From positions 1-13,011 of the forward strand of contig NZ_JAPNJZ010000012.1 of assembly GCF_026626765.1 (NCBI RefSeq): a DNA stretch of 13,011 bases, given 5' to 3'. Shown here piece after piece: positions 1 to 13,011 of this stretch. The notes below the pieces were generated by a model, which was not told the DNA's origin, ran no database searches, and was given only the letters and a program-made list of their open reading frames with translations. The translations under genes were made by a program, and so were the position numbers. Position 1 is the stretch's first letter. Every line of letters starts with the position of its first letter. The DNA comes from Corallococcus sp. bb12-1. Lineage in GTDB: Bacteria; Myxococcota; Myxococcia; Myxococcales; Myxococcaceae.

Positions 1-1735
1 CGGTGTCGGCGGTGCCTGCGTCCCTGCCGGAGGTGTCCGGCTGCGCGTCCCGGGAGGGGAGCGCCCTGGCGGAGAAGCTCGTCAGCAGTTCTGTCGGAGG
101 GCTCGGCTCACTCCGGTGACCGCCCAGGGGCTCCGGTTCTTCCTTCGCCGGTGCGGTCGGGAGGGTGGTCCTGGCGGTGTCGCTCCCGCTGTCCACCGAT
201 TCGGTCCGTGAAGGGGCTCGCGAAGGCTCCGGGGCCGGCGCGCGCTCACGCAGCGGCAGGCCCAGCACCATGGGCACCTCATCCGGCCGCATGTCGGGCT
301 CGGTCTTCACGAGCCGCGTGTCCATCCCTTCGTCCAGGGCCATGCCCATCACCAGGGGCAGGTCCTCGGCGCCTTCCTTGGGTGCCGCCGGTTCCGGAGC
401 CGCGGCCTCGGACGGAGCGGCTGGCGCGGCGGGCTTCGCGGCCGGCTTGGGCGCTGGCGCGGGCTTCGAGGCCTCCGGCATGCCCAGGCTCGCGAGCCGG
501 TTGGTGGGCGTGCCCGTCATGGTGACGTCGGGCGGCTCGTTGGCGGCGCCCACCGGCAGGTTTCCGCGGTTCTTCAGGAGCGAATCATAGAGGTCCAGCA
601 GCTGGCCCCGGATGAGGCCCGCGTCCAGCACCTTCTCCGCGTACTCGCGACCGGCCCGCCCCAGCGCCACGCGGCGGGGCACGTCGCGCGCCAGCTCCAC
701 GATGCGCTCGGCGAGCGCGCGGCTGTCCCCGGGTGGGAAGAAGACGGCCGCGTCCTGGGGGATGAGCTCGCGGGTGACGGGCAGGTCCGCGGCGATGACG
801 GGCCGGCCGGAGGCCATGTATTCGGAGACCTTGGCCAGCGGTCCGCCCTGGACCCGGTTGCGCTCCGAGTCGTCCAGGGGCAGCACACCCACGTCCGCCA
901 GGGCCAGCACCTTGAAGAGGTCGTCGTGGACGACGGGCGGCTGGAAGTCGACCTTCTCCTTGAGCCCCAGGTCCTTGACCAGGTCGTCCAGGTGGGGCTT
1001 CCAGTCCGGATGGTGCGCGCCCACGAGCGTCAGGCGCACGTCCACCTGCTGGGCGGCGAGCGCCGTGGCCCTCAGGAGGGTGGGCAGGCCCTGCCAGCCG
1101 ACGTGGCTGCCCAGGTACATCATCCTCAGGGGCGTGCCATCCGGGGCGCCGAGCACCTCCGGGTCATAGGGCTTCAGGTCCACGGGCGCGCGCAGCATGC
1201 GCAGCTGGTCTTCCGCCGCGCCCAGCCCCTGGATGTACCCGCGCGTCGTCTGGGAGCCCGTGACGACGAGGTCCGCGTTCATCAGGCAGAAGAGCTCCTG
1301 CCGGCGGATCTTCGACAGGAAGCGGCGGTCCCCGTCCGTCTGGGGATGGGTGTAGCGCAGCTCCTGCGAGGGGAAGGTCTGCGCCTCATAGATGAGGCGG
1401 TAGCCGTAGTCCGCCTTCAGCTCGCAGAGCGCGTAGCCGCCGAAGGGGTCCGTGAAGTGGGCGAGGGCGTAGTCCTCGCTTTCCAGCTGCCGACGCACGG
1501 CCCGCTCGAAGGATTGGATGCGCGAGGCCAGGTCGCCGGAGCCTACCGGGACGCGAAGCAGCCGTGCGCCCTGGTACTTCTCGATGTGGGAGTGGTCGGG
1601 CGTCTTCGCCGACAGCACCACCACGGAGAAGCGGTCAGGCAACGCCTTCAGATACTCGGTCAGTCGGCGTGAGGAGCCAGACGGGCCGGGGATGACGTCG
1701 AAGCTGCACAGGAGAAGTCTGGGCAGGTCACTCAA
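1..1735 (-). CDS. Family 4 glycosyltransferase (GT-B fold) with a ~200-aa Pro/Ala-rich low-complexity C-terminal extension. The C-terminus runs off the 5' edge of the window (partial, >578 aa).
   Basis: The start is TTG at 1733-1735, the only canonical start after an in-frame TGA three codons upstream. I checked the reverse-complement translation by hand: MSDLPRLLLCSFDVIPGPSGSSRRLTEYLKALPDRFSVVVLSAKTPDHSHIEKYQGARLLRVPVGSGD... continuing to ...VSEYMASGRPVIAADLPVTRELIPQDAAVFFPPGDSRALAERIVELARD... This is a typical GT4 N-terminal Rossmann domain plus the C-terminal nucleotide-sugar-binding motif. The frame stays open with high GC3 through a PAPAPKPAAKPAAPAAPSEAAAPEPAAPKE... tail all the way to position 1. 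It is not in the supplied ORF track, presumably because it is edge-truncated. Confidence 0.75.
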   Translation of the reverse strand, partial: MSDLPRLLLCSFDVIPGPSGSSRRLTEYLKALPDRFSVVVLSAKTPDHSHIEKYQGARLLRVPVGSGDLASRIQSFERAVRRQLESEDYALAHFTDPFGGYALCELKADYGYRLIYEAQTFPSQELRYTHPQTDGDRRFLSKIRRQELFCLMNADLVVTGSQTTRGYIQGLGAAEDQLRMLRAPVDLKPYDPEVLGAPDGTPLRMMYLGSHVGWQGLPTLLRATALAAQQVDVRLTLVGAHHPDWKPHLDDLVKDLGLKEKVDFQPPVVHDDLFKVLALADVGVLPLDDSERNRVQGGPLAKVSEYMASGRPVIAADLPVTRELIPQDAAVFFPPGDSRALAERIVELARDVPRRVALGRAGREYAEKVLDAGLIRGQLLDLYDSLLKNRGNLPVGAANEPPDVTMTGTPTNRLASLGMPEASKPAPAPKPAAKPAAPAAPSEAAAPEPAAPKEGAEDLPLVMGMALDEGMDTRLVKTEPDMRPDEVPMVLGLPLRERAPAPEPSRAPSRTESVDSGSDTARTTLPTAPAKEEPEPLGGHRSEPSPPTELLTSFSARALPSRDAQPDTSGRDAGTADT

Positions 1736-1864
1736 GCGGTCGCAGGATACTTGGACATGGGGAAGGTGTCATCGGTCGTGACGGAAGAAGAACGGGGTCC
1801 GCAGACAAACACATCCCGTGACGGATGCGTTGACCCCCTGTATGCCGCGACATAACGAGGCGGG
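1736..1864. promoter_or_regulatory. Divergent intergenic/promoter region between the GT4 gene (-) and the DUF4912 gene (+). It contains an exact 9-bp direct repeat CGTGACGGA (1777-1785 and 1817-1825, 40 bp apart) and a TTGACC -35-like hexamer at 1830-1835.
   Basis: GC content is locally lower here. The 9-mer occurs exactly twice within 129 bp. I found no convincing -10 hexamer at 17 bp spacing: TAACGA at 1853-1858 is poor, and CATAAC at 1851-1856 sits at 15 bp. Confidence 0.3.
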
Positions 1865-4270
1865 GTGTCCATGGATGAGCGGAAGGGCGTCACCTTGAGC
1901 TACCTGCGCGAGCTGGCCCGGAAATACCTCCGGGAGCGCTCCGGCGCGTCCCGAGGGCGTGAGTTCGTCGCCGCGCTGGCCGAGCGTGTTCCCGCCCTGG
2001 GGCGGCTCGCGCGCCTGGCAGGACTGAGCGTGTCCCAGCGCGGCTCCGGTGACGTGGGCGGTGAAGAGCGCAAGCTGGATTCCGGACCGCCGGATTCTGG
2101 TCCGGTGCAGGGCGCGAAGCCCGGGGCCGTTCCCCTGCCGCCTCCGGAGGTCGCTGACGCCGAAGGCGCACAGGCACGAGAACTTTTCTCGGAACCCATC
2201 ACCGAGCCCAGTGGTGGGCCCCGGACGCGGCCGGCCCGGGTGGTGACGTTCCCTGGCCGTGGTGGCAAGTCGCGCCGGGACCCGGACGACGAGGACACGC
2301 TGCCCTCGTTCCCGGAGACGCCCACGCCGCGTCCTTCGAGCGCGCCGACGCAGGACGCCGCGCCCCCGGCCGCCGCCGGAGCGGGCTTTGCGCCCGTAAG
2401 CGAGCCCCCGCATGCCGCCGAGCCCCTGGTGGAGGGGTTCTTCGTGACGAAGGTCGCGGGGCAGGCCGAAGCGCGCCGCCATCATCTGTTGGAGGAGCAG
2501 GCGCCGCGCCTGCCCCCCGCGGACCCGACGCCCGAGCGGCAGGAGCACCTGGGCGAGCTGCCCCTGGACTACCAGGACGACGCGATGGTGCTGCTCGCGC
2601 GCGATCCGCACACGCTCTTCGTCCTCTGGGACTTCAGTGATGCCAGCCGGCAGCGGGCCCTGGATGAGCTGCCGTCGCCGCGCGCGGTGCTGAAGGTGTT
2701 CGACGGGGAGGGTGTGTCGCGCGAGGTGGACTTCGCGTTGGAGTCGCGCAGCTTCTACCTGCGGGAGATGGCCCCCGGCCGCACGTACCGGGTGGAGGCG
2801 CACTTCGTCGGCTCGGATGGTCGTTCGCGCCGCATCGGACATTCGTCGAACCGGGCGACGCTGCCGCCGGCGGGACCGTCCTCGGACACGTCCATCCGGT
2901 TCCTGCACATGCCGCCCCCGCCCGTCGTGAACCGCGCGCGTGAGCAGGCCGTGCCGGTGGTGGCCCCGCGTGCCGCGGAGCCGCAGGAGCGCGAGTACGT
3001 GACGTGGCGCCGGGTGACGCTGCCGGGCAGCGCGGGCGTGCGCGACGTGCCGGAGGTGCACCGCGAGCGGGCCCCGGGCGCTTCGGATCAGCGCTATGGG
3101 GAGGCGCCCTACCTTGAGAATGTTCCCCGGGCGCCGGGGGCTTCGGACCAGCGGTATGCGCGTGGGGCGGAGGCGACGCCCGGTGAGGGCCTACCCCTGG
3201 CGCCTCCGCGTGCCCCGGGTGCTTCGGATCAGCGCTACCTGTCGGTGGATCGCGCGCCGGGCGCTTCGGATCAGCGCTACGGGCAGACGCTGCTTCCGGG
3301 CGGTGTGTCGGAGTATCGCTACCTGGAGGTTTCTTCCCGCGCCGCCGGAGCTTCGGAACAGCGCTACGTGGAAGGTGCTGGAGGGCAGGGCGCGTCGGGG
3401 CAGAAGTACATCGACGTGCCGCGAGCCCCCGGGGCTTCGGACCAGCGCTACCTCACGGTGTCGCCGGGGCCCGGGGCTTCGGATCAGCAGTACCTGACGG
3501 TGCCTCGTGCGGCGGGTGCATCGGATCAGCGGTATCTGGCCATGGATCGGGTGCCGGGTGCTTCGGATCAGCGGTACCTGACGGTGCCTCGTGCCGCTGG
3601 CGCATCGGAGCAACGCTACCTGGGCACGGAGGGCGCTTCGGGTCCGCAGTACCTGACGGTGCCTCGCGCGGCCGGGGCTTCGGATGCGCGCTATCTGGAG
3701 GACTCGCGCGCACCGGCGGGCCCGCCCGCGGCGCAGGGGCCTGCTGCTCCGCTTCCCGTGAATGGCCGAGGCGTGGGGAATGGCTCGCGCGCGCCTGCGA
3801 CGCCGGTCGCCGCGAAGCGGCCCGCGGACTCCTCCGCGTCGGACTCCCGTGCTCCAGGGGCGGTGGCTCCTGCGTCCTCGCGAGCCTCGGAGGCCGGGGC
3901 TCCCAGCGAGCCGTGGTCCTTGAGCGTGGCGCGCGGTCTGACCGCGTCCGAACAGCGAGCCCTCGACAAGGCGAGAGAAGCTGCCGAGGCGTCGCGGGAG
4001 GCCCCTCCGGCTCCCGCGCCTTCGGGTAACCCTGCTTCGACGGATGCGACGCCCGTGGCCTCGAAGGCCCCTGCCGCTCCTGTGGTGCCGAGCGCTCCAT
4101 CCGCAAAGGCCACCACGCCCCGGACGGAAGCCGCACCCGCTCAACCCTCGGCGCCCTCGAAGCCCGCCCCTCCGGAGCCGCTCGGGAAGGGCTCGCCGGA
4201 GCCTTCGTCTCCGGACTCCAAGTCCTCCACCTCCAAGTCCCGGCGCGCTTCGCGCCGTGGACGTTCGTGA
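1865..4270 (+). CDS. Rho_N-like N-terminus plus DUF4912 domain protein (801 aa). It has an internal array of ~14 tandem GASDQRY-type repeats and a Pro/Ala/Ser-rich C-terminal tail ending in a basic KSRRASRRGRS.
   Basis: The ORF track has a GTG start at 1865, with GAGG 6 nt upstream; an alternative ATG lies at 1871. The N-terminus LSYLRELARKYLRERSGASRGREFVAALAE resembles the Rho termination factor N-terminal (SAP-like) motif usually found at the start of DUF4912 proteins. The core LPLDYQDDAMVLLARDPHTLFVLWDFSDASRQRALDELP...RAVLKVFDGEGVSREVDFALESRSFYLREMAPGRTYRVEAHFVGSDGRSRRIGHSSNRATL is DUF4912-like. The stop is TGA at 4268-4270. Confidence 0.8.
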   Translation: MSMDERKGVTLSYLRELARKYLRERSGASRGREFVAALAERVPALGRLARLAGLSVSQRGSGDVGGEERKLDSGPPDSGPVQGAKPGAVPLPPPEVADAEGAQARELFSEPITEPSGGPRTRPARVVTFPGRGGKSRRDPDDEDTLPSFPETPTPRPSSAPTQDAAPPAAAGAGFAPVSEPPHAAEPLVEGFFVTKVAGQAEARRHHLLEEQAPRLPPADPTPERQEHLGELPLDYQDDAMVLLARDPHTLFVLWDFSDASRQRALDELPSPRAVLKVFDGEGVSREVDFALESRSFYLREMAPGRTYRVEAHFVGSDGRSRRIGHSSNRATLPPAGPSSDTSIRFLHMPPPPVVNRAREQAVPVVAPRAAEPQEREYVTWRRVTLPGSAGVRDVPEVHRERAPGASDQRYGEAPYLENVPRAPGASDQRYARGAEATPGEGLPLAPPRAPGASDQRYLSVDRAPGASDQRYGQTLLPGGVSEYRYLEVSSRAAGASEQRYVEGAGGQGASGQKYIDVPRAPGASDQRYLTVSPGPGASDQQYLTVPRAAGASDQRYLAMDRVPGASDQRYLTVPRAAGASEQRYLGTEGASGPQYLTVPRAAGASDARYLEDSRAPAGPPAAQGPAAPLPVNGRGVGNGSRAPATPVAAKRPADSSASDSRAPGAVAPASSRASEAGAPSEPWSLSVARGLTASEQRALDKAREAAEASREAPPAPAPSGNPASTDATPVASKAPAAPVVPSAPSAKATTPRTEAAPAQPSAPSKPAPPEPLGKGSPEPSSPDSKSSTSKSRRASRRGRS
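3068..3700 (+). repeat. In-frame degenerate tandem repeat array inside the DUF4912 gene: about 14 copies, 11 good and 3 degenerate. The peptide unit is P-R-A-[PA]-G-A-S-[DE]-Q-R-Y-L-T-V and the DNA core is gcttcggatcagcgctac. Unit spacing is 37-81 bp, settling to ~41 bp in the last six copies.
   Basis: The core occurs near 3079, 3138, 3219, 3261, 3347, 3431, 3473, 3517, 3558, 3599 and 3674. Degenerate copies lie near 3311 (SEYRYL), 3391 (GASGQKYI) and 3636 (GASGPQYL). Confidence 0.9.
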
Positions 4271-4296
4271 ACCCGCACGGCCTCTTCGACTGACCT

Positions 4297-5886
4297 ATGA
4301 GCCTGGGCTCCCTCGCGCTGGTCCTCCACGCACATCTCCCCTTCGTCCGTCACCCCGAGCACGAGGACTTCCTCGAGGAGGACTGGCTCTACGAAGCCAT
4401 CTCCGAGACGTACCTGCCGCTGCTGCGCGTGTTCGACGCGCTGGTCGAGGATCGCGTCCCCTTCCGGGTGACGATGACGCTCTCGCCCACGCTCGTCACG
4501 ATGCTCAACGACGACCTGCTGCGCGAGCGCTACGCCCGGCGTCTGGACCTGCTCTGCGAGCTGGGCGCCCGCGAGGTGCACCGCACCCGTCACGACGCCA
4601 CGTTCCATCCGCTGGCCGTCTTCCACCGCGACCACTTCGACTCGCTGCGCCTCGCGTACAACAACCACTACCGGCGCGACCTGGTCGGCGCGTTCCGCAG
4701 GCTCCAGGACGCAGGCCACCTGGAGATCCTCACCTGCAACGCCACCCACGGCTTCCTGCCGCTGATGCAGCAGACGCCCGAGGCCGTGCGCGCCCAGGTG
4801 ACGGTGGCGGCGAACCACTACCGGCAGAACTTCGGCCGTGACCCCGCGGGCATCTGGCTGGCCGAGTGCGGCTACTACCCGGGCCTGGAGCGCATCCTCT
4901 CCGCCGAGCGCATCCGCTATTTCTTCGTCGACACGCACGCGCTCACGGACGCCACCCCCCGCCCGCTGCACGGCCCCTACGCCCCCATCTTCACCGAGCC
5001 GGGCGTCGCCGCCTTCGCGCGCGACCCGGAGAGCAGCCAGCAGGTGTGGAGCACCGAGCACGGCTACCCGGGCGACCCCGTGTACCGCGAGTTCTACCGG
5101 GACATCGGCTGGGACCTGGACCAGGACTACATCCGGCCCTTCATCCAGCCCACCGGCGACCGGAAGAACACCGGCTTCAAGTACTTCCGCATCACCGGCA
5201 AGACGAACGACAAGCAGCCCTATGATCCGGCCGCGGCCCGCGAGCGCGCGGCCGTGCACGCCGGCAACTTCCTCTTCAACCGCGAGCGGCAGTTCGAATA
5301 CCTCGCCTCGCGCATGGGCGGCCGCAAGCCCGTGGTCGTCGCGCCCTACGACGCGGAGCTGTTCGGTCACTGGTGGTTCGAAGGCCCCCACTTCATCGAA
5401 GCACTCATCCGTCAGGCCGCGCGCGAGCCCCGGAAGTTCGACCTCATCAGCCCTCTGGACGACCTGCGCGCGCACCCGGAGAACCAGGTGGCCACGCCGC
5501 CCCTGTCGTCCTGGGGCGCGGGCGGGTACGCGAACATGTGGCTGGATGGGAGCAACGACTGGATCTACCGGCACCTGGACCACTGCGCGAAGCAGATGGT
5601 GGCGCTGGCTCGGGACTTCCCCGACGCCTCGTCCTTGCCGCGCCGGGCGCTGAACCAGGCCGCGCGCGAGCTGCTGCTGGCGCAGTCCTCCGACTGGGCC
5701 TTCATCATGAAGACCGGCACCATGGTGGACTACGCCGTGCGCCGGACGAAGGAGCACCTGCAGCGCTTCCTGCGCCTGCACGACCAGGTGCGCGCGGGAA
5801 CCGTCGATGAAGCGTGGCTGTCCCATGTGGAGGGCCGCGACAACCTGTTTCCAGAACTGGACTACCGGGTGTACCGGCCCGGTTGA
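4297..5886 (+). CDS. Glycoside hydrolase family 57 protein, a 1,4-alpha-glucan branching-enzyme homologue (GH57 catalytic domain plus C-terminal DUF1957-type helical domain), 529 aa.
   Basis: ATG at 4297. The N-terminus MSLGSLALVLHAHLPFVRHPEHEDF matches the GH57 family start motif (hydrophobic stretch then HxHLP[FY]V). GIWLAECGYYPG contains the family's WxAE nucleophile region. WWFEGPHFIE and the C-terminal helical region are also GH57-like. The length is typical for GH57 branching enzymes. The gene lies 26 bp downstream of the DUF4912 gene on the same strand, so an operon is likely. Confidence 0.85.
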   Translation: MSLGSLALVLHAHLPFVRHPEHEDFLEEDWLYEAISETYLPLLRVFDALVEDRVPFRVTMTLSPTLVTMLNDDLLRERYARRLDLLCELGAREVHRTRHDATFHPLAVFHRDHFDSLRLAYNNHYRRDLVGAFRRLQDAGHLEILTCNATHGFLPLMQQTPEAVRAQVTVAANHYRQNFGRDPAGIWLAECGYYPGLERILSAERIRYFFVDTHALTDATPRPLHGPYAPIFTEPGVAAFARDPESSQQVWSTEHGYPGDPVYREFYRDIGWDLDQDYIRPFIQPTGDRKNTGFKYFRITGKTNDKQPYDPAAARERAAVHAGNFLFNRERQFEYLASRMGGRKPVVVAPYDAELFGHWWFEGPHFIEALIRQAAREPRKFDLISPLDDLRAHPENQVATPPLSSWGAGGYANMWLDGSNDWIYRHLDHCAKQMVALARDFPDASSLPRRALNQAARELLLAQSSDWAFIMKTGTMVDYAVRRTKEHLQRFLRLHDQVRAGTVDEAWLSHVEGRDNLFPELDYRVYRPG

Positions 5887-5893
5887 GCGCTTC

Positions 5894-5919
5894 GGGAACA
5901 GGCGGGCTGGCCGGGAGTT
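5894..5919 (+). promoter_or_regulatory. Candidate ECF-sigma-type promoter upstream of the htrA/degP homologue: GGGAACA (5894-5900), a 16-nt spacer, then GTT (5917-5919).
   Basis: A GGAAC -35 followed 16-17 nt later by a GTT-containing -10 is the general architecture of ECF sigma (SigE/SigH/SigR-type) promoters. It sits about 70 bp upstream of the ATG at 5989. This is pattern matching only. Confidence 0.3.
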
Positions 5920-5928
5920 AACCTCCCG
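5912..5928. terminator. Short GC-rich hairpin CGGGAG-ttaac-CTCCCG (6-bp stem, 5-nt loop), 26 bp after the GH57 stop codon. It has no T-tract.
   Basis: The inverted repeat is seen directly at 5912-5917 and 5923-5928. It could be a weak terminator or processing stem for the DUF4912-GH57 transcript. It also overlaps the putative ECF -10 element, so its role is ambiguous. Confidence 0.2.
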
Positions 5929-5988
5929 CGAGCGGACGATGTCGTTCCGGTTGCGGGGACTCGTTTCCGCTTTAGCTTGAAGGAATCC

Positions 5989-7488
5989 ATGACCCACACG
6001 CTCCTTCCGTTCCGTCGCAAGCTCGTGACCGCCGTGTTGGTGCTGGCGTCGCCCACACTCGCCCTGGCGCAGGCTCCGGCGCCCAAGCCCGCCGCTCCGC
6101 GGACGCAGCCGGCGGTCACCGGGCAGGCCGGCAACCTCCAACCCGCCACGCGCGAGGCCCAGTCGCTGGCCTCGCTGGCCCCGCTGGTGGACTCGGTGAA
6201 GTCCGCCGTCGTGAACGTGGATGTGCAGGCCCGTCCCGAAATGCCGGAGGGCATGGAGGACAACCCGCTCTTCGACCGCTTCTTCGGCGGAAACGGTGGG
6301 CGGGGTGGCGGCCGCAGTGAGCGGGAGCAGGTCCGCCAGGGCGCCGGGTCCGGCTTCATCATCGACCCCAAGGGTCTGGTGCTCACCAACAACCACGTCA
6401 TCGCGGACGCGGTCACCATCACCATCCGCCTGGACGACGGCCGTTCGTTCACCGGCGAGGTGGTGGGGCGCGACCCGCTCACCGACGTGGCCGTGGTGAA
6501 GATCAAGGAGAAGGTGGATCAGCTGCCCACCGTGAAGCTGGGCGACTCGGACGCGGTGCGCGTGGGCGACTGGGTGCTGGCCATTGGCAACCCGTTCGGC
6601 CTCGCGTCCAGCGTCAGCGTGGGCATCCTGTCCGCGCGGGCCCGGGAGATTGGCGCCAGCGCGTACGACGACTTCCTCCAGACGGACGCGGCCATCAACC
6701 CTGGCAACTCCGGCGGCCCGCTGTTCAACATGAAGGGCGAGGTGGTGGGCATCAACACCGCCATCGTCGGCGGCGGCACGGGCATCGGCTTCTCCGTGCC
6801 CAGCAACCTCATCAAGGCGCTCCTGCCGCAGTTGGAGAAGAGCGGCTCCGTCACGCGCGGCTGGCTGGGCGTGGGCATCCAGCCCCTCACGCGCGACTTG
6901 GCGCAGGCGCTGAAGCTGCCAGTGAACGAGGGCGCCATCCTCACGCAGATCAACCCCGGCTCCCCCGCGGCGAAGGCGGGGCTCAAGGCGGACGACGTGG
7001 TCGTCGCCGTGGACGGGCAGAAGGTCCGCTCCGACAGCGAGCTCACCCGCACGGTGGCGCTCAAGAAGCCCAACAGCGTCACCACGCTCAGCCTCTACCG
7101 CGACGGCAAGGCCCAGGACGTGAAGGTGACCATGGGCACCCGGCCGGACCTGGAGGGCCTGTCCAAGAAGAAGCCCGAGGCCGCCGAGGAGCAGGACACC
7201 TCGCGCCGCGTGGGCGTGTCCCTGCAGGACCTGGATGCGCGCACCGCGTCCCAGGCGGGCTTCACCGAACGCTCCGGGGCGCTCATCACCGACGTCCTCC
7301 CCGGCTCGCCCGCGGACCGCGCGCAGCTGTCCCCGGGCATGTTGGTGGTGGAGGCGAACCGCAAGCCCATCGCGAGCGCGAAGGAGCTGGCTGCGGTCAT
7401 CCGCGCCGCGCCCGCGGGCGGCACCCTGCTGCTGCGCGTGGCCGGTCCCGGCGGCGGGCGGCTCCTGCGCGCGTTGAAGATGCCCTGA
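5989..7488 (+). CDS. htrA: Periplasmic HtrA/DegP/DegQ (Do) family serine endoprotease with a signal peptide and two PDZ domains, 499 aa.
   Basis: ATG at 5989 with AAGGA 5-8 nt upstream; the ORF track's TTG at 5977 is less likely. The signal peptide is MTHTLLPFRRKLVTAVLVLASPTLALAQA. Trypsin-fold motifs are present: GSGFIIDPKGLVLTNNHVI (His), DVAVVKI (Asp) and GNSGGPLFN (Ser). Two PDZ-like segments follow, containing GAILTQINPGSPAAKAGLKADDVVVAVDG and GALITDVLPGSPADRAQLSPGMLVVEANRKPI. Stop is TGA at 7486-7488. Confidence 0.9.
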   Translation: MTHTLLPFRRKLVTAVLVLASPTLALAQAPAPKPAAPRTQPAVTGQAGNLQPATREAQSLASLAPLVDSVKSAVVNVDVQARPEMPEGMEDNPLFDRFFGGNGGRGGGRSEREQVRQGAGSGFIIDPKGLVLTNNHVIADAVTITIRLDDGRSFTGEVVGRDPLTDVAVVKIKEKVDQLPTVKLGDSDAVRVGDWVLAIGNPFGLASSVSVGILSARAREIGASAYDDFLQTDAAINPGNSGGPLFNMKGEVVGINTAIVGGGTGIGFSVPSNLIKALLPQLEKSGSVTRGWLGVGIQPLTRDLAQALKLPVNEGAILTQINPGSPAAKAGLKADDVVVAVDGQKVRSDSELTRTVALKKPNSVTTLSLYRDGKAQDVKVTMGTRPDLEGLSKKKPEAAEEQDTSRRVGVSLQDLDARTASQAGFTERSGALITDVLPGSPADRAQLSPGMLVVEANRKPIASAKELAAVIRAAPAGGTLLLRVAGPGGGRLLRALKMP

Positions 7489-7503
7489 GGCGAGCGAGCG
7501 GCG

Positions 7504-8097
7504 ATGAGCGTCAACTACGTCTCGCTGGGTGACAGCACGGCGGTGGGGGTGGGGGCGGCGCAGGGCGGGGGATATCCCGACCGGCTCGCCTCCCGCCTCC
7601 GACAGGGTGGCCTGCCGGTGGGCCACACCAACCTGGGGCAGAGCGGCGCGCGCGTGCGCGACGTCGTCACCCACGCCCTCAAGCGCGTCGTCGCGTTGCA
7701 GCCCACGCTCATCACCCTGGGCGTGGGCACCAACGACCTCTGGCGCGGCACCGAGGTGGCGGAGTACCAGGACGACCTGGACCGCATCGCCCGGCGCCTG
7801 AAGCAGACCGGCGCGTCCATGGTGGTGGTGAACCTGGCCGACATGGCGCTCGCGCCCATCGCGAAGCTGGTGCCGAGCGCGCTGTACGAAGGGCGCATCG
7901 AGCCGTTCAACGAAGCCATCGCCACGGTGGCCCGCGCGCACGGCCTGCACCTGGTGGACCTGTACACGGCCAGCCGCGAGATGATCCCCCGGCGCTCTGA
8001 CTTCTTCTCCCCGGACGGCTTCCACCCGTCCGCGGTGGGCTACGAAGAGTGGGCGGACCTGATGCTGCCCGTGGTGCGCACGCTCGTGCAGCGCTGA
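7504..8097 (+). CDS. SGNH/GDSL-family hydrolase (esterase/lipase-like), 197 aa. It is probably co-transcribed with htrA, given the 15-bp gap.
   Basis: Block I is VSLGDSTAVG (GDS nucleophile), block II is NLGQSGARV, block III is GVGTNDLW and block V is DGFHPS (DxxH). I did not identify a signal peptide. Confidence 0.8.
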   Translation: MSVNYVSLGDSTAVGVGAAQGGGYPDRLASRLRQGGLPVGHTNLGQSGARVRDVVTHALKRVVALQPTLITLGVGTNDLWRGTEVAEYQDDLDRIARRLKQTGASMVVVNLADMALAPIAKLVPSALYEGRIEPFNEAIATVARAHGLHLVDLYTASREMIPRRSDFFSPDGFHPSAVGYEEWADLMLPVVRTLVQR

Positions 8098-8120
8098 GTC
8101 CCGCGCACCGTTTCCCGCTT
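8073..8120. terminator. Possible terminator between the convergent SGNH (+) and cyclase (-) genes: GGTGCGC (8073-8079) pairs with GCGCACC (8103-8109) around a 23-nt loop, followed on the + strand by GTTTCCCGCTT.
   Basis: The 7-bp inverted repeat spans the SGNH stop codon (8095-8097). The loop is large, but an inner GCT...AGC pairing is possible. The downstream U-tract is weak. The two stop codons are only 22 bp apart. Confidence 0.2.
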
Positions 8121-10045
8121 CACGCCTTGGCGATGCCCGAGGGGGCAGGGGGCGTCGTCGGAGCGTCCGAGGGCGGGGCGTTGATGCTGCGCTCGCGGCC
8201 GGGGTGCATCTCCATGCCCGCTTCGAAACACGTCACGCGGTTGCGGCCCGTGCGCTTGCTGCAATAGAGCGCCGAGTCCGCGCAATCCACCAGCGTCTCC
8301 TGCGAGTTCGCGTCCGTGGGGAAGTGCGCGACGCCAATGGACACCGTGACGTGGTTGCCCGGCAGGCCCGGCCGGCCCAGCGCTCCGGAATCCGCCACCG
8401 CGCGGCGCAGCGTCTCCGCGACCTCGAACGCCGTCGCCTTGGAGACCTGCGGCAGCAGCAGCACGAACTCCTCGCCGCCATAGCGCCCCAGCGTGTCCAC
8501 CTTGCGCGCGCGGGTGCGCAGCACGTCGGAGACCCGGCGCAGCGTCTCATCACCGGCCCGGTGTCCGGCCAGGTCGTTGAGCCGCTTGAAGTGGTCCACG
8601 TCCACCATCAGGAGCGCCAGCGGCACGCCGAAGCGCTGGGCGCGCGCCAGCTCCAGGTCCAACCGCTGGAAGAGGTGGCGCCGGTTGGGCACGCCCGTGA
8701 GCGCGTCCGTCAGCGTGAGCTTCACCGTCTCCGCGTGCAGGCGCGCGTTCGTCACCGCAGTGGCCGCCTGATCCGCCACCGCGGTGAAGAGCTCGATCTC
8801 CTCCGCGGAGAAGCACGCCGTCTCCGGCCGCTGGAAGTTGATGACGCCCAGGAGCGTCTCCGCGTGCACCATGGGCACCGCGAGCAGCGAGCCCTGCTCC
8901 GAACCGCCGCGCAGGCCGCGCCGGGCGAAGATGCTGGTGCTGTCGGTGAGGTCCGGCAGGTACACCGCCTTGCGCGTCTGGGCGGCCCGGCCACACGCGC
9001 CCTCGCCCACGGCGAAGGTGTGGCCCTCCAGGCCCCGGCCCTTCGGCCACGCGTGCTTCACCTCCAGCATGCCGTCCTCGTTGAGGAGCATGATGGAGAA
9101 GTCGGGGATGTGCAGGCGCTCCACCACCATGCGGGTGATGCGCGACAGGAGCTCGTCCAGCTCCAGCGTGGTGTTGAGCGAGCGCGCCACGTCGAAGAGC
9201 AGCGACAGCTCCAGCAGGCGCTCCTCCAGTTCGTCCTTGAGCGCCAGCTTCTCCTTCACCAGCTCCAGGTCGCGGTGCGTGTCGATCTCCTCCACCTTCA
9301 TGGAGGTGAGCCGCGCGAGCATCTGGTTGAAGGCCGCGCCCAGCCGCGAAATCTCATCCGTGCCCCGGGCGTCCGCGCGCACCAGCAGGTCTCCGGACTC
9401 CGCGCGCCCCATGACCTCGCTCAGCCGCTTGAGCGGACGCGTGAGGACGAAGCGCAGGCTCAGCCACGTGACGAGCGCCAGGATGCCCACGAAGAGCACC
9501 ATCGCCCCCAGCGCGTCGCCGAACATCGTCTGCAACTGGCGGTGCAGCGCGGGCTCGCCCAGGCGCACCTGCAACGCGCCCATGCGCTGCGCGGCCTCGC
9601 CGGTGTGACAGCCGGAGCACTCGGGGCCGCCAAGGGGCCGCACCACCTCCGTGCCGTGGTCGATGGTGCGCGCCGCCTCCTGCCCCGTCGCCGACAGCCG
9701 CGCGGCCTCCGGATGCGGGTGGCCCTGTTCGGCTGGACGCCGGCTCCACCGGATGCGCCCGTCCGGCGTCAGCACCCGCAGGTCCTCCACGGAGCGGAAC
9801 AGCCGCGTGTCCGACGCCAGCACCTCCGCCACCGCGCCGTGCGGAGCCGCGCCCGGCGCCTGCGGCAGGGTGAACGTGGACGCCACGAACTCCGCCAGCG
9901 CCAGGGCTTCCAGGTGCGTGCCTTCGCGCACGGCCTGCCGCGTCTCGCGCGAGAAGTGCCACACGCCCAGCAACGCCACCACCAACCCTGGCAGGCCAAT
10001 GCTCCAGAGGAGCTTCCTGCCAATCGTCTCGGAACCCAGGGCCAT
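8120..10045 (-). CDS. Membrane-bound sensor diguanylate cyclase: TM1, a ~140-aa periplasmic domain with a CxxCH motif, TM2, HAMP, a coiled coil, GAF and GGDEF (GGEEF active site with an RxxD I-site).
   Basis: The stop is TGA, read as tca at 8120-8122. I prefer the ATG at 10045 (MALGSETIGRKLLWSIGLPGLVVALLGVWHF, where TM1 begins) to the track's TTG at 10135, because the putative promoter lies between them. The HAMP segment is LKRLSEVMGRAESGDLLVRADARGTDEISRLGAAFNQMLARL. The GAF domain contains LLFDVARSLNTTLELDELLSRITRMVVERLHIPDFSIMLLNEDG... The GGDEF domain contains LTGVPNRRHLFQRLDLELARAQRFGVPLALLMVDVDHFKRLNDLAGHRAGDETLRRV, with RKVD followed five residues later by GGEEF (canonical I-site spacing). 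The periplasmic motif GGPECSGCHTGEA is encoded at 9605-9619. Confidence 0.85.
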   Translation of the reverse strand: MALGSETIGRKLLWSIGLPGLVVALLGVWHFSRETRQAVREGTHLEALALAEFVASTFTLPQAPGAAPHGAVAEVLASDTRLFRSVEDLRVLTPDGRIRWSRRPAEQGHPHPEAARLSATGQEAARTIDHGTEVVRPLGGPECSGCHTGEAAQRMGALQVRLGEPALHRQLQTMFGDALGAMVLFVGILALVTWLSLRFVLTRPLKRLSEVMGRAESGDLLVRADARGTDEISRLGAAFNQMLARLTSMKVEEIDTHRDLELVKEKLALKDELEERLLELSLLFDVARSLNTTLELDELLSRITRMVVERLHIPDFSIMLLNEDGMLEVKHAWPKGRGLEGHTFAVGEGACGRAAQTRKAVYLPDLTDSTSIFARRGLRGGSEQGSLLAVPMVHAETLLGVINFQRPETACFSAEEIELFTAVADQAATAVTNARLHAETVKLTLTDALTGVPNRRHLFQRLDLELARAQRFGVPLALLMVDVDHFKRLNDLAGHRAGDETLRRVSDVLRTRARKVDTLGRYGGEEFVLLLPQVSKATAFEVAETLRRAVADSGALGRPGLPGNHVTVSIGVAHFPTDANSQETLVDCADSALYCSKRTGRNRVTCFEAGMEMHPGRERSINAPPSDAPTTPPAPSGIAKA

Positions 10046-10106
10046 GTGCGGAACGCAGTGTCTCCGAAGCCCGCGCGTTCTGTGCAGCGGGAAGGAGTGT
10101 CCAGAA

Positions 10107-10135
10107 ATTGTCAGGGGGGTGACACGCCCTGTCAA
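10107..10135 (-). promoter_or_regulatory. Sigma70-type promoter on the minus strand reading toward the cyclase gene: TTGACA (complement of 10130-10135), a 17-nt spacer, then GACAAT (complement of 10107-10112).
   Basis: It has a perfect -35 hexamer and a 4/6 -10 hexamer that keeps the conserved A2 and T6. The predicted transcription start near 10100 lies downstream of the TTG at 10135, which supports the ATG at 10045 as the true start. Confidence 0.35.
10109..10134. promoter_or_regulatory. Nested inverted repeats TGTCA-N6-TGACA-N5-TGTCA (10109-10113, 10120-10124, 10130-10134) overlapping the -35/spacer of the putative cyclase promoter. The geometry resembles a CRP/FNR-family operator.
   Basis: TGTCA and TGACA are reverse complements. 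The first pair forms a 16-bp 5-N6-5 palindrome, one mismatch per half-site from the E. coli CRP consensus TGTGA-N6-TCACA. It sits in the 190-bp divergent region between the cyclase and pgeF genes. Confidence 0.3.
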
Positions 10136-10237
10136 ACGTACTCACGTGGAAATATTGAAGCTGGACTGCTGTTAGCAGCGAGTTCCTGTTTTCAGGGGCT
10201 GCGCCCATCATGGGGCGGAAGGCCCGAGGAAAGCCCC

Positions 10238-11035
10238 ATGTCGTCCACGTCCGCGCCTGCATTCCTCACGTCCGCGCTGTTGCCGGTGCCGCACGGCTTC
10301 GCCACGCGCGAGGGTGGGGTGTCGGAAGGGCCCTACGCGTCGCTGAACCTGGGGTTCTCCGTGGGCGACGAGCGCTCCCGCGTGGAGGAGAACCACCGGC
10401 GGCTGGCCCGGGCGGTGGGCGCGAAGCTGGGCGCGCTGGGCCGGGTGTCGCAGGTGCACGGCGACCGGGTGCTGGAGGTGAAGGGCGAAGCCGAAGACGT
10501 GCTGCGCCCGACGCTGGGTGAAGCGGACGCGCTGTGGACCGAAGGGGAGGGCAGCTGGGTGGCGGTGGGCACCGCGGACTGCGTGCCGGTGCTGCTGGTG
10601 GATCCGCGGGGGCGCCGGGTGGCGGCGGTGCACTCGGGCTGGAAGGGCACGGACCTGGAGATCAGCGCGCGCACGGTGGAGGCGCTGGTGGCGAAGGGTT
10701 CGCGGCCGGAGCACCTGCTGGCGGCGGTGGGCCCCTGCATCCAGGCGTGCTGCTACGAGGTGTCGGCGGAATTGGGGGAGCGCTTCCGGGCGCGCTTCGG
10801 TCCGGAGGTGGTGCGCGAAGGCGTGAAGCCCCACCTGGATCTTCCCCGGGCGGTGAGGGGCTCGCTGCTCAAGGCGGGCCTGAAGCCGGAACACGTGGAC
10901 GTGCTACAGGCCTGTACGGCGTGTGAGCGCGAGCGGTTCTTCTCCCACCGCCGGGACGCGGGGCTCACGGGCCGGCACCTCAATTTCGTGCTACACCAGT
11001 TCGAGCGTCCCGTTCCAGACCGGCCGTTTTCTTGA
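10238..11035 (+). CDS. pgeF: PgeF/YfiH family protein (peptidoglycan editing factor; DUF152, laccase-domain / purine nucleoside phosphorylase-like), 265 aa.
   Basis: ATG at 10238 with GAGGA about 9 nt upstream. It lies in the same frame as the long artefactual ORF 8204-11035. Family motifs present: LNLGFSVGDE, GTADCVPVLLVD (conserved Cys), AAVHSGWKGT (conserved His) and GPCIQACCYEV. Stop is TGA at 11033-11035. Confidence 0.85.
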   Translation: MSSTSAPAFLTSALLPVPHGFATREGGVSEGPYASLNLGFSVGDERSRVEENHRRLARAVGAKLGALGRVSQVHGDRVLEVKGEAEDVLRPTLGEADALWTEGEGSWVAVGTADCVPVLLVDPRGRRVAAVHSGWKGTDLEISARTVEALVAKGSRPEHLLAAVGPCIQACCYEVSAELGERFRARFGPEVVREGVKPHLDLPRAVRGSLLKAGLKPEHVDVLQACTACERERFFSHRRDAGLTGRHLNFVLHQFERPVPDRPFS

Positions 11036-11089
11036 CGGTCTCCGACCGGCCTTCCTATCCTCGACGCGGAATCTCCTCCGTCCAGGCTC

Positions 11090-11926
11090 GTGCCGGTGCG
11101 CTCCTTCTTCTTCCGCCTGTTTGCTGTCGTGGCGCTGTGCGCGCCGACTGGTTGCGCCACCACCGCCGCTTCCCAGACGGAAGTGGGGCGGCTGGAGGCG
11201 GAGCTGCGCACGCTGCGCGTCACCCAGGCGAAGCTGGTGGAGCGCCTGGAGCGGCTGGAGAACCGTGACGCCGTCGCCCGCGCCCGCGCCGCGTCCACGC
11301 CGGCGACGCCTGCTCCGGCGCCCGCGAAGAAGCCCGACGCGCCCCCCGCCGACGAAGGCCTGGGGCTGCCCCCGTCGGAGCTTGCGGTGGTGCGGCTCAA
11401 GCCGAAGAAGGAACCGGCCCCGCGCATCGCCACGGCGGTCGCGGTGTCGGAGCCGGATCCGGACCAGATGGAGATGTTCATCAGCCCGGCGGACGGTTCG
11501 TCGGGGACCGCGTCTCCGGGCCGGGTGGAGGTGCCGGACAAGGATCCGGCCATCCTCGAAGCCGAGTACGAGCACGCCGTGGCGCTCCTGCGCACCGGCA
11601 ACGTGGACGGGGGCGTGGAGCAGCTCACGCGCTTCGCGGAGGAGAACCCCCGCCACCCCCGCGCGGACAACGCGCTGTACTTCACCGGCCTGGGGCAGAT
11701 GGGCCTCCATGACACGGCCAGCGCCGCGAAGACGTTCGAACGCCTCATCAAGACCTACCCCGCTGGGGATGCCATCCTGGACGGCATGCTCCGGCTCGCG
11801 GAGTGCCGGGTGCGGCTGAATCAGGCCGTGGATGCCAGGGCCCTCTATACTCGCGTCGTCACCCAGTTCCCGGGGACGGCCGCCGCCACGCAGGCGGAGC
11901 AGCGGCTCGCCGCGCTCTCGCCGTAA
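11090..11926 (+). CDS. Exported coiled-coil plus tetratricopeptide-repeat protein resembling YbgF/CpoB (the Tol-Pal-associated periplasmic protein), 278 aa.
   Basis: GTG start at 11090, the first start after the in-frame stop at 11033. The N-terminal signal is MPVRSFFFRLFAVVALCAPTGCATT. A coiled coil follows: QTEVGRLEAELRTLRVTQAKLVERLERLENRD. The C-terminal TPR region carries the YbgF-type pattern ...ALYFTGLGQMGLHDTASAAKTFERLIKTYPAGDAILDGMLRLAECRVRLNQAVDARALYTRVVTQFPGTAAATQAEQRLAAL. Stop is TAA at 11924-11926. Confidence 0.7.
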   Translation: MPVRSFFFRLFAVVALCAPTGCATTAASQTEVGRLEAELRTLRVTQAKLVERLERLENRDAVARARAASTPATPAPAPAKKPDAPPADEGLGLPPSELAVVRLKPKKEPAPRIATAVAVSEPDPDQMEMFISPADGSSGTASPGRVEVPDKDPAILEAEYEHAVALLRTGNVDGGVEQLTRFAEENPRHPRADNALYFTGLGQMGLHDTASAAKTFERLIKTYPAGDAILDGMLRLAECRVRLNQAVDARALYTRVVTQFPGTAAATQAEQRLAALSP

Positions 11927-11953
11927 GACCTTTTCGTGAAAGGACGTCGTCCG

Positions 11954-13011
11954 ATGCGCTCCCGGATCCTCGCCTCCCTGCTCGTGCCCCTCGCCATCTC
12001 GCCGGCGTGGACGGCCCATGCCCAGCAGCAGGACGCGCAAGAGGAGGAACCGCAGCCGGCCAGCAGTGAGACGGAAGGCCAGGACATCTCCGACGAAGCC
12101 CCGGAGCGCCCCACCTCCGTCACGCTGCCCCCAGGTGCCGCCCAGGGCCGCGAAAGCGCCCCCGGTCAGGTGCACACGGTGGAGGGCGGCGACACGCTGT
12201 GGGATTTGTCCCAGCGCTACCTGGGCAGCCCCTGGTACTGGCCCAAGGTCTGGTCCTACAACCCGCAGATCGCCAACCCGCACTGGATCTACCCGGGCAA
12301 CAACGTGAAGTTCTTCCCCGGCGGCGAGGAAGTGCCGTCGCGCGTGGAGGCGGGTGACCTTCCCTCCGACGACGTGGTGGCGCCCCAGGACGTGAGCGGC
12401 GCCAGCCTGGTGTCGGTGGTGGGGAAGATCGGCTACGACGTGTCCGCGTCCCGGCCGGTGACGACCAAGGGCTTCGTGACGTCGCGCGAGCTGGACGAGG
12501 CGGGCCGCATCGAAGGCTCCCCCTCCGAGGCGCTGATGCTGTCGACTCCGGAGCGGGTCTACCTGCGCTTCAAGAAGAAGGGCGCCGCCAAGGTGGGGGA
12601 TCGCTACGTCATCTTCCACACCGTGGAGCCGGTGAAGCATCCGGTCACGGGCGCCAAGGCGGGCTTCCTCACGGAGCTGCTGGGCACGGTCCAGGTGACC
12701 GCCATCAACGACGAGATGGTGACCGCCCGCATCATGGAGACCTGGGACCCCATCGAGCGCGGCAACTACGTGGGCCCCTCCAGCGAGCGGCTGTCGGAGC
12801 GCGTGGCGCCCAAGCCGAACTCCAAGGAGATCCCCGGCTACGTGCTGACGCCGATGACGCCGGGCCAGACCGTGATGGGCGAGCACCACTACATCGTCGT
12901 GGACCGCGGCACCGCGGACGGCGTGCAGGTCGGCAACACCTTCACCATCGAGCGCAAGGGCGACCCGAGCCTCGACGTGCTCAGCCGCGTCGACTCGAAG
13001 CCGGGCGAGAT
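11954..13011 (+). CDS. Secreted LysM peptidoglycan-binding domain protein. The N-terminal 352 aa are in the window and the 3' end runs off the edge.
   Basis: ATG at 11954 with AAAGGA about 10 nt upstream. My hand translation gives the signal MRSRILASLLVPLAISPAWTAHAQQ. The LysM domain is HTVEGGDTLWDLSQRYLGSPWYWPKVWSYNPQIANPHWIYPGNNVKF. The downstream region (...RVYLRFKKKGAAKVGDRYVIFHTVEPVKHPVTGAKAGFLTELLGTVQVTAINDEMVTARIMETW...) matches no domain I recognise. It is missing from the ORF track because it is edge-truncated. Confidence 0.8.
   Translation, partial: MRSRILASLLVPLAISPAWTAHAQQQDAQEEEPQPASSETEGQDISDEAPERPTSVTLPPGAAQGRESAPGQVHTVEGGDTLWDLSQRYLGSPWYWPKVWSYNPQIANPHWIYPGNNVKFFPGGEEVPSRVEAGDLPSDDVVAPQDVSGASLVSVVGKIGYDVSASRPVTTKGFVTSRELDEAGRIEGSPSEALMLSTPERVYLRFKKKGAAKVGDRYVIFHTVEPVKHPVTGAKAGFLTELLGTVQVTAINDEMVTARIMETWDPIERGNYVGPSSERLSERVAPKPNSKEIPGYVLTPMTPGQTVMGEHHYIVVDRGTADGVQVGNTFTIERKGDPSLDVLSRVDSKPGE

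Follow-up and report, generated by a model that had tools for sequence, protein, structure and literature searches.

In the genome of Corallococcus sp. bb12-1, a 13,011-nt window (contig NZ_JAPNJZ010000012.1, positions 1-13,011; G+C content 71%) contains a minus-strand gene for a 641-residue membrane diguanylate cyclase (8120-10045). We propose that this protein is a haem-c sensor, in which a periplasmic single Cache domain with one CxxCH motif controls the synthesis of cyclic di-GMP (c-di-GMP), and we put the probability of this reading at about 0.7. Support for it is provided here by the domain architecture, the fold of the periplasmic domain, the conservation of the motif, the likeness to known haem-c sensors and the intact catalytic and inhibitory-site residues of the cyclase. 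All positions below are those of the window, and all features of the cyclase gene lie on the minus strand.

Gene structure and domain layout

The coding sequence was defined by its open reading frame (ORF; stop codon at 8120-8122) and by full-length collinearity with orthologues at 73-91% identity, all of which share the start MALGSETIGRKLLW. G+C content at third codon positions (GC3) is 0.94 in this frame, indicating that a plus-strand ORF at 8204-11035 is spurious where it overlaps the cyclase gene. The product is 91% identical to its counterpart in C. aberystwythensis, and no record was matched in an exact-sequence look-up of the window protein.

A preliminary description of this DNA, made from the letters alone, had placed a periplasmic domain between two transmembrane (TM) helices, followed by HAMP, GAF and GGEEF segments, and this layout was confirmed by hydropathy analysis and Pfam searches. 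TM1 (residues ~12-30; 9956-10012) is a hydropathy peak that is conserved in the family alignment and immediately preceded by R10 and K11; it probably functions as a signal anchor. TM2 (residues 179-200; 9446-9511), a strong hydropathy peak, continues the C-terminal helix of the structural model described below and is directly followed by a HAMP domain (residues 201-247; 9305-9445; Pfam PF00672, E = 8.7e-13), an arrangement that places the intervening sensor domain (residues 31-178; 9512-9955) in the periplasm. The next segment, a helical linker with a heptad-like sequence (MKVEEIDTHRDLELVKEKLALKDELEERLLELSLLF; residues 248-293; 9167-9304), is the best conserved part of the protein among orthologues (86-95% identity) and is likely to form a coiled coil. 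The protein is completed by a GAF domain (residues 294-431; 8753-9166; Pfam GAF_2, E = 1.2e-18; GAF, E = 4.5e-17) and a GGDEF diguanylate cyclase domain (residues 445-603; 8237-8713; Pfam, E = 1.2e-44; TIGR00254, E = 8.5e-48). Every full-length family member has the identical architecture.

Conservation of the CxxCH motif

The CSGCH sequence (residues 143-147) is located at 9605-9619, exactly as the preliminary description had claimed, and its Cys143 and Cys146 are the sole cysteines of the periplasmic segment. As a c-type haem attachment motif, it would provide two thioether bonds to haem through these cysteines and the proximal ligand through His147. The expected number of CxxCH occurrences per 148-residue domain is 1.2e-4 from local composition and 5.5e-4 from shuffled whole-protein composition, and the caution expressed earlier, that a single motif could arise by chance, was therefore excessive, even with conservation left aside.

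The orthologue check proposed in the preliminary description was carried out with nine full-length sequences from Corallococcus, Citreicoccus, Myxococcus (including M. xanthus AM003) and one metagenome-assembled genome. The CxxCH is present at residue 143 in 9/9 of them, both cysteines and the histidine being conserved. When 1.84 billion representatives were searched exhaustively with HMMER, only 24 related clusters were recovered, and all 13 further family sequences that cover the site contain the motif (P0001, P0002, P0003, P0005, P0006, P0007, P0008, P0010, P0012, P0015, P0017, P0019 and P0022), the most distant being at 28-31% identity. With the window protein counted, the CxxCH is invariant in 23/23 site-covering sequences. 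Word-indexed homologue searches returned only 2-3 matches because the family is tiny; it is apparently restricted to Myxococcota.

In the family alignment, nine positions do not vary at all, three of them being Cys143, Cys146 and His147. The two residues between the cysteines are free to vary (SG, TG, AG, GS, GG, AS, VR, AR, NA and VA), and the second Cys codon alternates between the synonymous TGT and TGC. Furthermore, no other module of the protein evolves as fast as the periplasmic domain, whose identity between genera is 61-66% compared to 77-83% for the GGDEF domain, which makes the invariance of the CxxCH more telling. Taken together, these comparisons indicate that the motif is under selection and is not a chance occurrence.

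We found no intact family member without CxxCH; hits lacking the motif end at a contig edge, are frameshifted or are chimeric. Several such apparent relatives are assembly artefacts, namely P0011, P0014 and P0020 (frameshifted), P0013 and P0023 (chimeric) and P0016 (junk prefix), and sequences of this kind, taken naively, mimic family members devoid of the motif. Loci of other Myxococcota and of Gemmatimonadota (L039, L044, L056 and others) encode related GGDEF proteins that share the HAMP, GAF and GGDEF domains. They were rejected as members of the sensor family, as they carry other periplasmic domains without CxxCH.

Fold of the periplasmic domain

An AlphaFold2 model of the periplasmic domain, computed from 14 family sequences, had a predicted local distance difference test score (pLDDT) of 82.5 and a predicted template-modelling score of 0.76, and a PAS-like single Cache (sCache/PDC) fold was modelled with confidence. 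The model begins with a long N-terminal helix, a second helix, a beta-hairpin, a helix and a second beta-hairpin. These elements are followed by a loop and short helix containing the CxxCH, a final beta-strand and a C-terminal helix continuing into TM2. Two Geobacter haem-c chemoreceptor domains were near the top of the list of structures returned by Foldseek, 3B42 (GSU0935) at rank 2 (E = 2.4e-4) and 3B47 (GSU0582) at rank 5 (E = 6.3e-4), each with 22% identity, a value that no other listed structure exceeded. Structure prediction had been proposed in the preliminary description as a check of the sensor domain, and its outcome, a PAS-like single Cache fold, is accompanied by detectable profile similarity to the same Geobacter domains, as detailed below.

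A second model, with the family's most divergent member as lead sequence, had a pLDDT of 73 and was poor near the motif; sCache domains were again matched. Since both models return this assignment, the Cache fold is robust. For a particular structural connection to the Geobacter domains, the models are no more than suggestive.

Relationship to known haem-c sensor families

Template sequences for the two Geobacter proteins (3B47 residues 30-121 and 3B42 residues 32-122) were obtained via a chimeric PDB query carrying the published GSU0582 13-mer. When the family profile was aligned to GSU0582 and GSU0935 with hhalign, P-values of 6.3e-5 to 8.5e-5 were obtained over 66-68 columns. The alignment pairs the CxxCH with the CQSCH of the GSU proteins, DLRV(L) with DLRI(Y), and the (V/R)PL strand; phmmer, unlike hhalign, extends the match into the following ...GA(L/M) segment. 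Shuffling the other template columns while keeping the motif gave scores of 22.3 ± 2.0 (maximum 27.8), compared to 30.7 for the native alignment, and 0/160 shuffles reached the native value. When the five motif columns were deleted on both sides, a 16-column match remained at the first hairpin (P = 0.006). In searches of the PDB, the sub-threshold matches at the motif were mostly to cytochromes c (SoxA, DHC2, NrfA and a reaction-centre cytochrome).

Two Pfam families are relevant to this comparison: PF11845 (Tll0287-like/DUF3365) and PF21563 (Mcp40H-20_sensor). The GSU0582 and GSU0935 fragments score 126 bits against PF21563 and only 12.6 bits against PF11845. Where the PF11845 profile touches our family, in P0022, the CxxCH falls on profile positions ~103-108 of 144, the same positions as the CxxCH of GSU0935. 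The sCache_3_2 model was touched weakly by two family members, and an NCBIfam search returned nothing significant for the native periplasmic domain. In our reading, the haem-c single-Cache class (sCache_heme, broadly defined) probably includes this domain as a third sequence family, one that no existing model describes. The assignment of the Geobacter sensors themselves differs between sources, a preprint placing them in the DUF3365/Tll0287 family (PMC12889525), yet Pfam giving them their own family, PF21563. With the haem-c Cache class split over several sequence families, censuses based on PF11845 will undercount it.

Other searches for members of the class gave negative results. An ORF scan for CxxCH among 80 genome loci revealed no DUF3365 proteins, only spurious high-GC ORFs or unrelated proteins, and a homologue search with a padded profile of the published 13-mer returned nothing at E up to 10. 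A metagenome scan for the GSU0582 motif CQSCHEQG found 39 loci, none of which encodes a haem-c sensor; the hits are class I cytochromes, matches in the wrong frame, and an unrelated protein whose CxxCH is C-terminal. The unrelated protein, found at three loci (L095, L100 and L116), is a conserved protein of ~250 residues with a signal peptide and a single CQSCHEQG at most 20 residues from the C-terminus. This protein has no relationship with Cache sensors; it could be a small c-type haem protein of an unusual sort.

Candidate distal haem ligand

The preliminary description had drawn attention to a methionine nine residues downstream of the motif. This residue, Met155, is present; the spacing of nine holds from Cys146, the distance from His147 being eight. 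Met155 was rejected as the distal ligand since the position is not conserved, Myxococcus orthologues carrying Ser or Ala there.

A better candidate for the sixth ligand is His69 (9839-9841), which is located in the loop just before helix alpha-2. Conservation points to this residue: it is found in all sequences covering the position, within the motif (a)H(r/g)aV, the histidine of P0022 being shifted two residues upstream. Moreover, when the distal Met60 of GSU0935 is extrapolated onto the window protein, it falls at most ~4 residues from His69.

Output domain

The GGEEF active-site motif (residues 523-527; 8465-8479) is intact and is preceded, by exactly five residues, by RKVD (residues 514-517; 8495-8506), an RxxD inhibitory site (I-site), in agreement with the preliminary description. 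The set of catalytic residues is complete: DVDHFK contributes the metal-binding Asp, NRR and FKRLND the GTP-binding Asn/Asp, and KRTGRN is also present. The nearest solved structures are the GGDEF domains of WspR, PleD and DosC. Judged by its sequence, the domain should be a canonical, product-inhibitable c-di-GMP synthase.

We also considered the Hypr GGDEF enzymes, which are cyclic GMP-AMP synthases exemplified by GacA/GacB and in which Ser/Thr replaces the guanine-specifying Asp of FKxxN(D) (10.1101/600031). This assignment was rejected because FKRLND carries the Asp, which favours a canonical c-di-GMP synthase.

Proposed mechanism and signal

Four points of the following model are predictions: that haem is attached, which residue is the distal ligand, what the signal is, and in which direction it changes cyclase activity. 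The protein would act as a dimeric inner-membrane cyclase, with TM1 as signal anchor and residues 31-178 exported in unfolded form. The cytochrome c maturation machinery would then join haem to Cys143 and Cys146, His147 would become the proximal ligand, and His69, at the start of alpha-2, would probably supply a displaceable sixth ligand. Binding of a diatomic gas, nitric oxide (NO) or carbon monoxide (CO), or a redox change of the iron would alter haem coordination and shift the N-terminal helices, continuous with TM1, against the C-terminal helix, which leads into TM2. Relayed by TM2, HAMP, the coiled-coil linker and GAF, this shift would change the geometry of the GGDEF dimer and with it the rate of c-di-GMP synthesis, and the RKVD I-site would add product feedback inhibition.

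Control by redox state, O2 or NO had been suggested in the preliminary description. By analogy, NO would be favoured and O2 the least likely of the three, because published haem-c Cache sensors bind NO stably and do not bind O2 in this way (PMC12889525). NO may be regarded as the most likely gas signal; any particular signal is much less certain than the sensor role itself.

The orthologue in Myxococcus xanthus

M. xanthus, an aerobe, encodes respiratory complexes I-IV, and the in vivo stability of its periplasmic cytochrome c TfcP depends on the CxxCH of that protein (PMC8833165). From this evidence, drawn from M. xanthus, we infer that the lineage can mature c-type cytochromes. All 24 M. xanthus genes for GGDEF, EAL and HD-GYP proteins have been deleted systematically, and phenotypes were seen only for genes of other architectures; in the same census, MXAN3705 and MXAN2061 were the sole predicted membrane proteins among the 24 (PMC4686200). 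We observed that the M. xanthus orthologue of the window protein (L004:3706-5640; 645 residues) has TM1, the periplasmic domain, TM2 and HAMP. It may correspond to MXAN2997 (646 codons), the match being one of length only. Given that the census predicted only two membrane proteins, this sensor seems to have been overlooked in the species.

A broader proposal extends these observations, and we hold it only tentatively, as possible but rather doubtful: the domain may define a separate, unmodelled haem-c Cache lineage, restricted to Myxococcota and bis-His ligated (His69/His147), through which periplasmic NO or redox signals would enter the c-di-GMP network of Myxococcaceae directly, an input overlooked in M. 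xanthus. NO or redox-active compounds of prey or neighbouring cells, for example, could be detected in this way.

Weighing the haem-c reading against its alternatives

Several results weigh against a haem-c sensor. No Pfam domain was found in the first 200 residues of the window protein. PF11845 gave no match to it at E up to 1, and only one of 17 family members, P0022, matched this model, over 24 residues at the motif and below the cut-off (15.2 bits, E = 0.03; cut-off 24.1). None of the 17 members matched PF21563 (gathering threshold 27 bits) at E up to 10. In HMMER searches of the PDB, nothing significant was found for the native domain by phmmer or by hmmsearch from the profile of its family, and the hhalign probability for the Geobacter alignment is only 60-64%, with templates that are two partial sequences. 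On the structural side, TM-scores to the Geobacter structures are low (0.33-0.41); the Geobacter sensors crystallised as domain-swapped dimers (PMC8396549), and domain swapping may lower these scores. With the second model, which is of lower confidence, the Foldseek link to 3B42 and 3B47 did not recur, and the His69 loop has a mean pLDDT of 56, which denotes low model confidence. In sCache_heme proteins the CXXCH is inserted after beta-3 and before beta-4 (PMC12889525); in our model the motif is preceded by a beta-hairpin and followed by one strand, and the insertion points may therefore not be strictly equivalent. Finally, deletion of MXAN2997 caused no motility or development phenotype (PMC4686200), a result that counts against the proposal if MXAN2997 is the orthologue.

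Of the competing interpretations, the one that survives best, although we consider it unlikely, is that haem c is attached and yet structural or inert, the true signal being a small molecule in the Cache pocket or an input through GAF. There is a precedent in Myxococcus TfcP, a repurposed cytochrome c for which a mainly stabilising role of the haem has been proposed (PMC8833165); the GAF domain offers a second potential input, and the lack of a known phenotype for the likely M. xanthus orthologue would be compatible with this view. However, in the haem-c sensors studied the haem fills the space between helices and sheet and a change in its coordination is the signal (PMC8396549; PMC12889525), and a haem with a sensing role would suit the conserved distal His, which lies in a flexible loop and could be displaced.

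Next in plausibility, and likewise improbable, is a CxxCH free of haem that forms a redox-active or structural disulfide or a Zn/Cu site, the Cache domain then responding, with no cofactor, to the thiol/disulfide balance, to a metal or to a small molecule. CxxC is common in periplasmic thiol-disulfide and metal sites, and neither haem-c sensor family gave a threshold-level Pfam match. But His147 is as invariant as the cysteines, and a disulfide would not need it. The motif also aligns with the proven haem-attachment CQSCH of GSU0582 and GSU0935 inside a longer collinear alignment, its context P-L-G-G-x-x-C-x-x-C-H-x-G draws weak matches to cytochrome c haem sites, and another conserved His could serve as axial ligand.

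The last interpretation, a chance motif in an ordinary ligand-binding periplasmic domain, had in its favour only that a single motif had been noted in a single protein, and it is effectively refuted by the conservation data, since 1e-4 to 5e-4 occurrences are expected per domain and the motif is invariant down to ~28% identity while neighbouring residues vary. The haem-c sensor thus remains our preferred reading.

Promoter and gene neighbourhood

A putative sigma-70-like promoter, TTGACA-17 nt-GACAAT, is located ~60 nt upstream of the ATG of the cyclase gene (10107-10135, minus strand). It is the only promoter-like site in the interval 7950-10350, in which 0.1 would be expected, and both hexamers are invariant in 10/10 orthologous upstream regions (the window and L001-L009), the remaining intergenic sequence being poorly conserved. 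These features suggest that the element functions as a promoter. Within it, the TGACA of the -35 hexamer is followed five bases on by an inverted TGTCA/CGTCA copy, and a further TGACA is present in the -10 region (TTGACAGGGCGTGTCAC...TGACAAT). The TGACA repeats could be an operator for a promoter-overlapping regulator.

The cyclase gene is alone on its strand, convergent with a GDSL hydrolase gene (7504-8097, plus strand) and divergent from a PgeF/YfiH (Cu-oxidase_4) gene (10208-11035, plus strand). The GDSL stop and the cyclase stop are separated by 22 bp, a gap in which we found no terminator-like hairpin. Upstream of the GDSL gene on the plus strand are genes for a DUF4912 protein (1865-4270; start uncertain, with an atypically low GC3 of 0.81), a GH57 branching-enzyme-like protein (4297-5886; Glyco_hydro_57 and BE_C) and an HtrA/DegP protease with two PDZ domains (5977-7488). 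The order DUF4912, GH57, HtrA, GDSL, cyclase, PgeF is kept in 8/8 orthologous loci that are long enough; on the short contig of the ninth locus, L001, only GDSL, cyclase and PgeF are present. Conserved gene order indicates vertical inheritance and provides no functional tie between the cyclase and its neighbours.

The window further contains a group-1 glycosyltransferase gene whose product has a long Pro/Ala/Glu-rich tail (1-1720, minus strand, running off the left end), and genes for a TPR lipoprotein (YfiO/TPR_6-like; 11090-11926, plus strand) and a LysM protein (11954-13011, plus strand, running off the right end). The GH57 gene beside a glycosyltransferase recalls alpha-glucan or methylglucose-polysaccharide clusters, and the HtrA/DegP, GDSL, PgeF, TPR lipoprotein and LysM neighbours are envelope-related.

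Implications

The proposed function involves no new principle, as the coupling of haem-c Cache sensors to c-di-GMP enzymes has been described before and such gas or redox sensors are already known from Geobacter and other bacteria. The input signals of diguanylate cyclases in the Myxococcus group, on the other hand, are mostly unknown. If the haem-c reading is correct, NO, CO or the periplasmic redox state would be a concrete c-di-GMP input in these social, predatory myxobacteria, conveyed by a conserved, syntenic gene with its own conserved putative promoter. Such a sensor would also explain the absence of a deletion phenotype under standard laboratory conditions. Current models PF11845 and PF21563 would also be shown to miss at least one divergent branch with a different candidate distal ligand, which bears on how, and how often, the cytochrome-like CxxCH element was acquired.

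Comparison with known systems

The closest likeness is to the Geobacter chemoreceptors GSU0582 and GSU0935 (PDB 3B47 and 3B42), which similarly consist of TM1, a PAS-like/Cache domain of ~140 residues with one CxxCH, TM2 and HAMP. Even the numbering is nearly identical, with Cys140, Cys143, His144 and Met60 in GSU0935 (PMC8396549) corresponding to Cys143, Cys146, His147 and His69 here. In both cases the distal ligand would come from the N-terminal helical region, as Met60 in GSU0935 and the candidate His69 in the window protein. The motif precedes TM2 by some 25-30 residues in both. The crystallised GSU0582 domain ends ~25 residues past the His (His 109 of a 134-residue chain), and TM2 begins 32 residues past His147 in the window protein. 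The two systems differ in their output, which is a methyl-accepting chemotaxis module in the Geobacter proteins and HAMP-GAF-GGDEF here, and in their hosts, an anaerobic metal reducer and an aerobic myxobacterium, respectively.

The sCache_heme/DUF3365 proteins (PF11845; PDB 5B82) likewise have a single Cache domain with a CXXCH, in their case placed in a late loop and short-helix element. The motif is strictly conserved among them, and they are fused to HAMP and histidine kinase, chemoreceptor or c-di-GMP outputs (PMC12889525). Covalent haem is seen when these proteins are expressed with pEC86; a HAMP-linked representative held NO with a slow off-rate, and no tested protein formed a stable O2 complex (PMC12889525). 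Among the entries listed from the preprint's data sets, neither Corallococcus nor Myxococcus appears (PMC12889525). Tll0287 is a stand-alone protein with a Cys distal ligand, whereas the window protein has a candidate His and is fused to HAMP-GAF-GGDEF.

Cofactor-free sCache/PDC sensors, such as the extracellular domains of WalK, CitA, DcuS, TlpB and PhoR, have neither CxxCH nor haem and bind small ligands in the pocket in which haem is expected here. DosC (DgcO) shares with our protein the control of a GGDEF domain by a haem sensor and thus a gas- or redox-to-c-di-GMP logic. It is, however, a cytoplasmic O2 sensor with non-covalent haem b in a globin fold, as opposed to the periplasmic Cache domain and predicted covalent haem c of the window protein. 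YfiN/TpbB (DgcN) has the same succession of TM helix, periplasmic PAS-like domain, TM helix, HAMP and GGDEF, and NCBIfam and PDB matches cover the GGDEF and HAMP regions. YfiN has no haem motif and no GAF domain, and it is controlled by the periplasmic protein YfiR.

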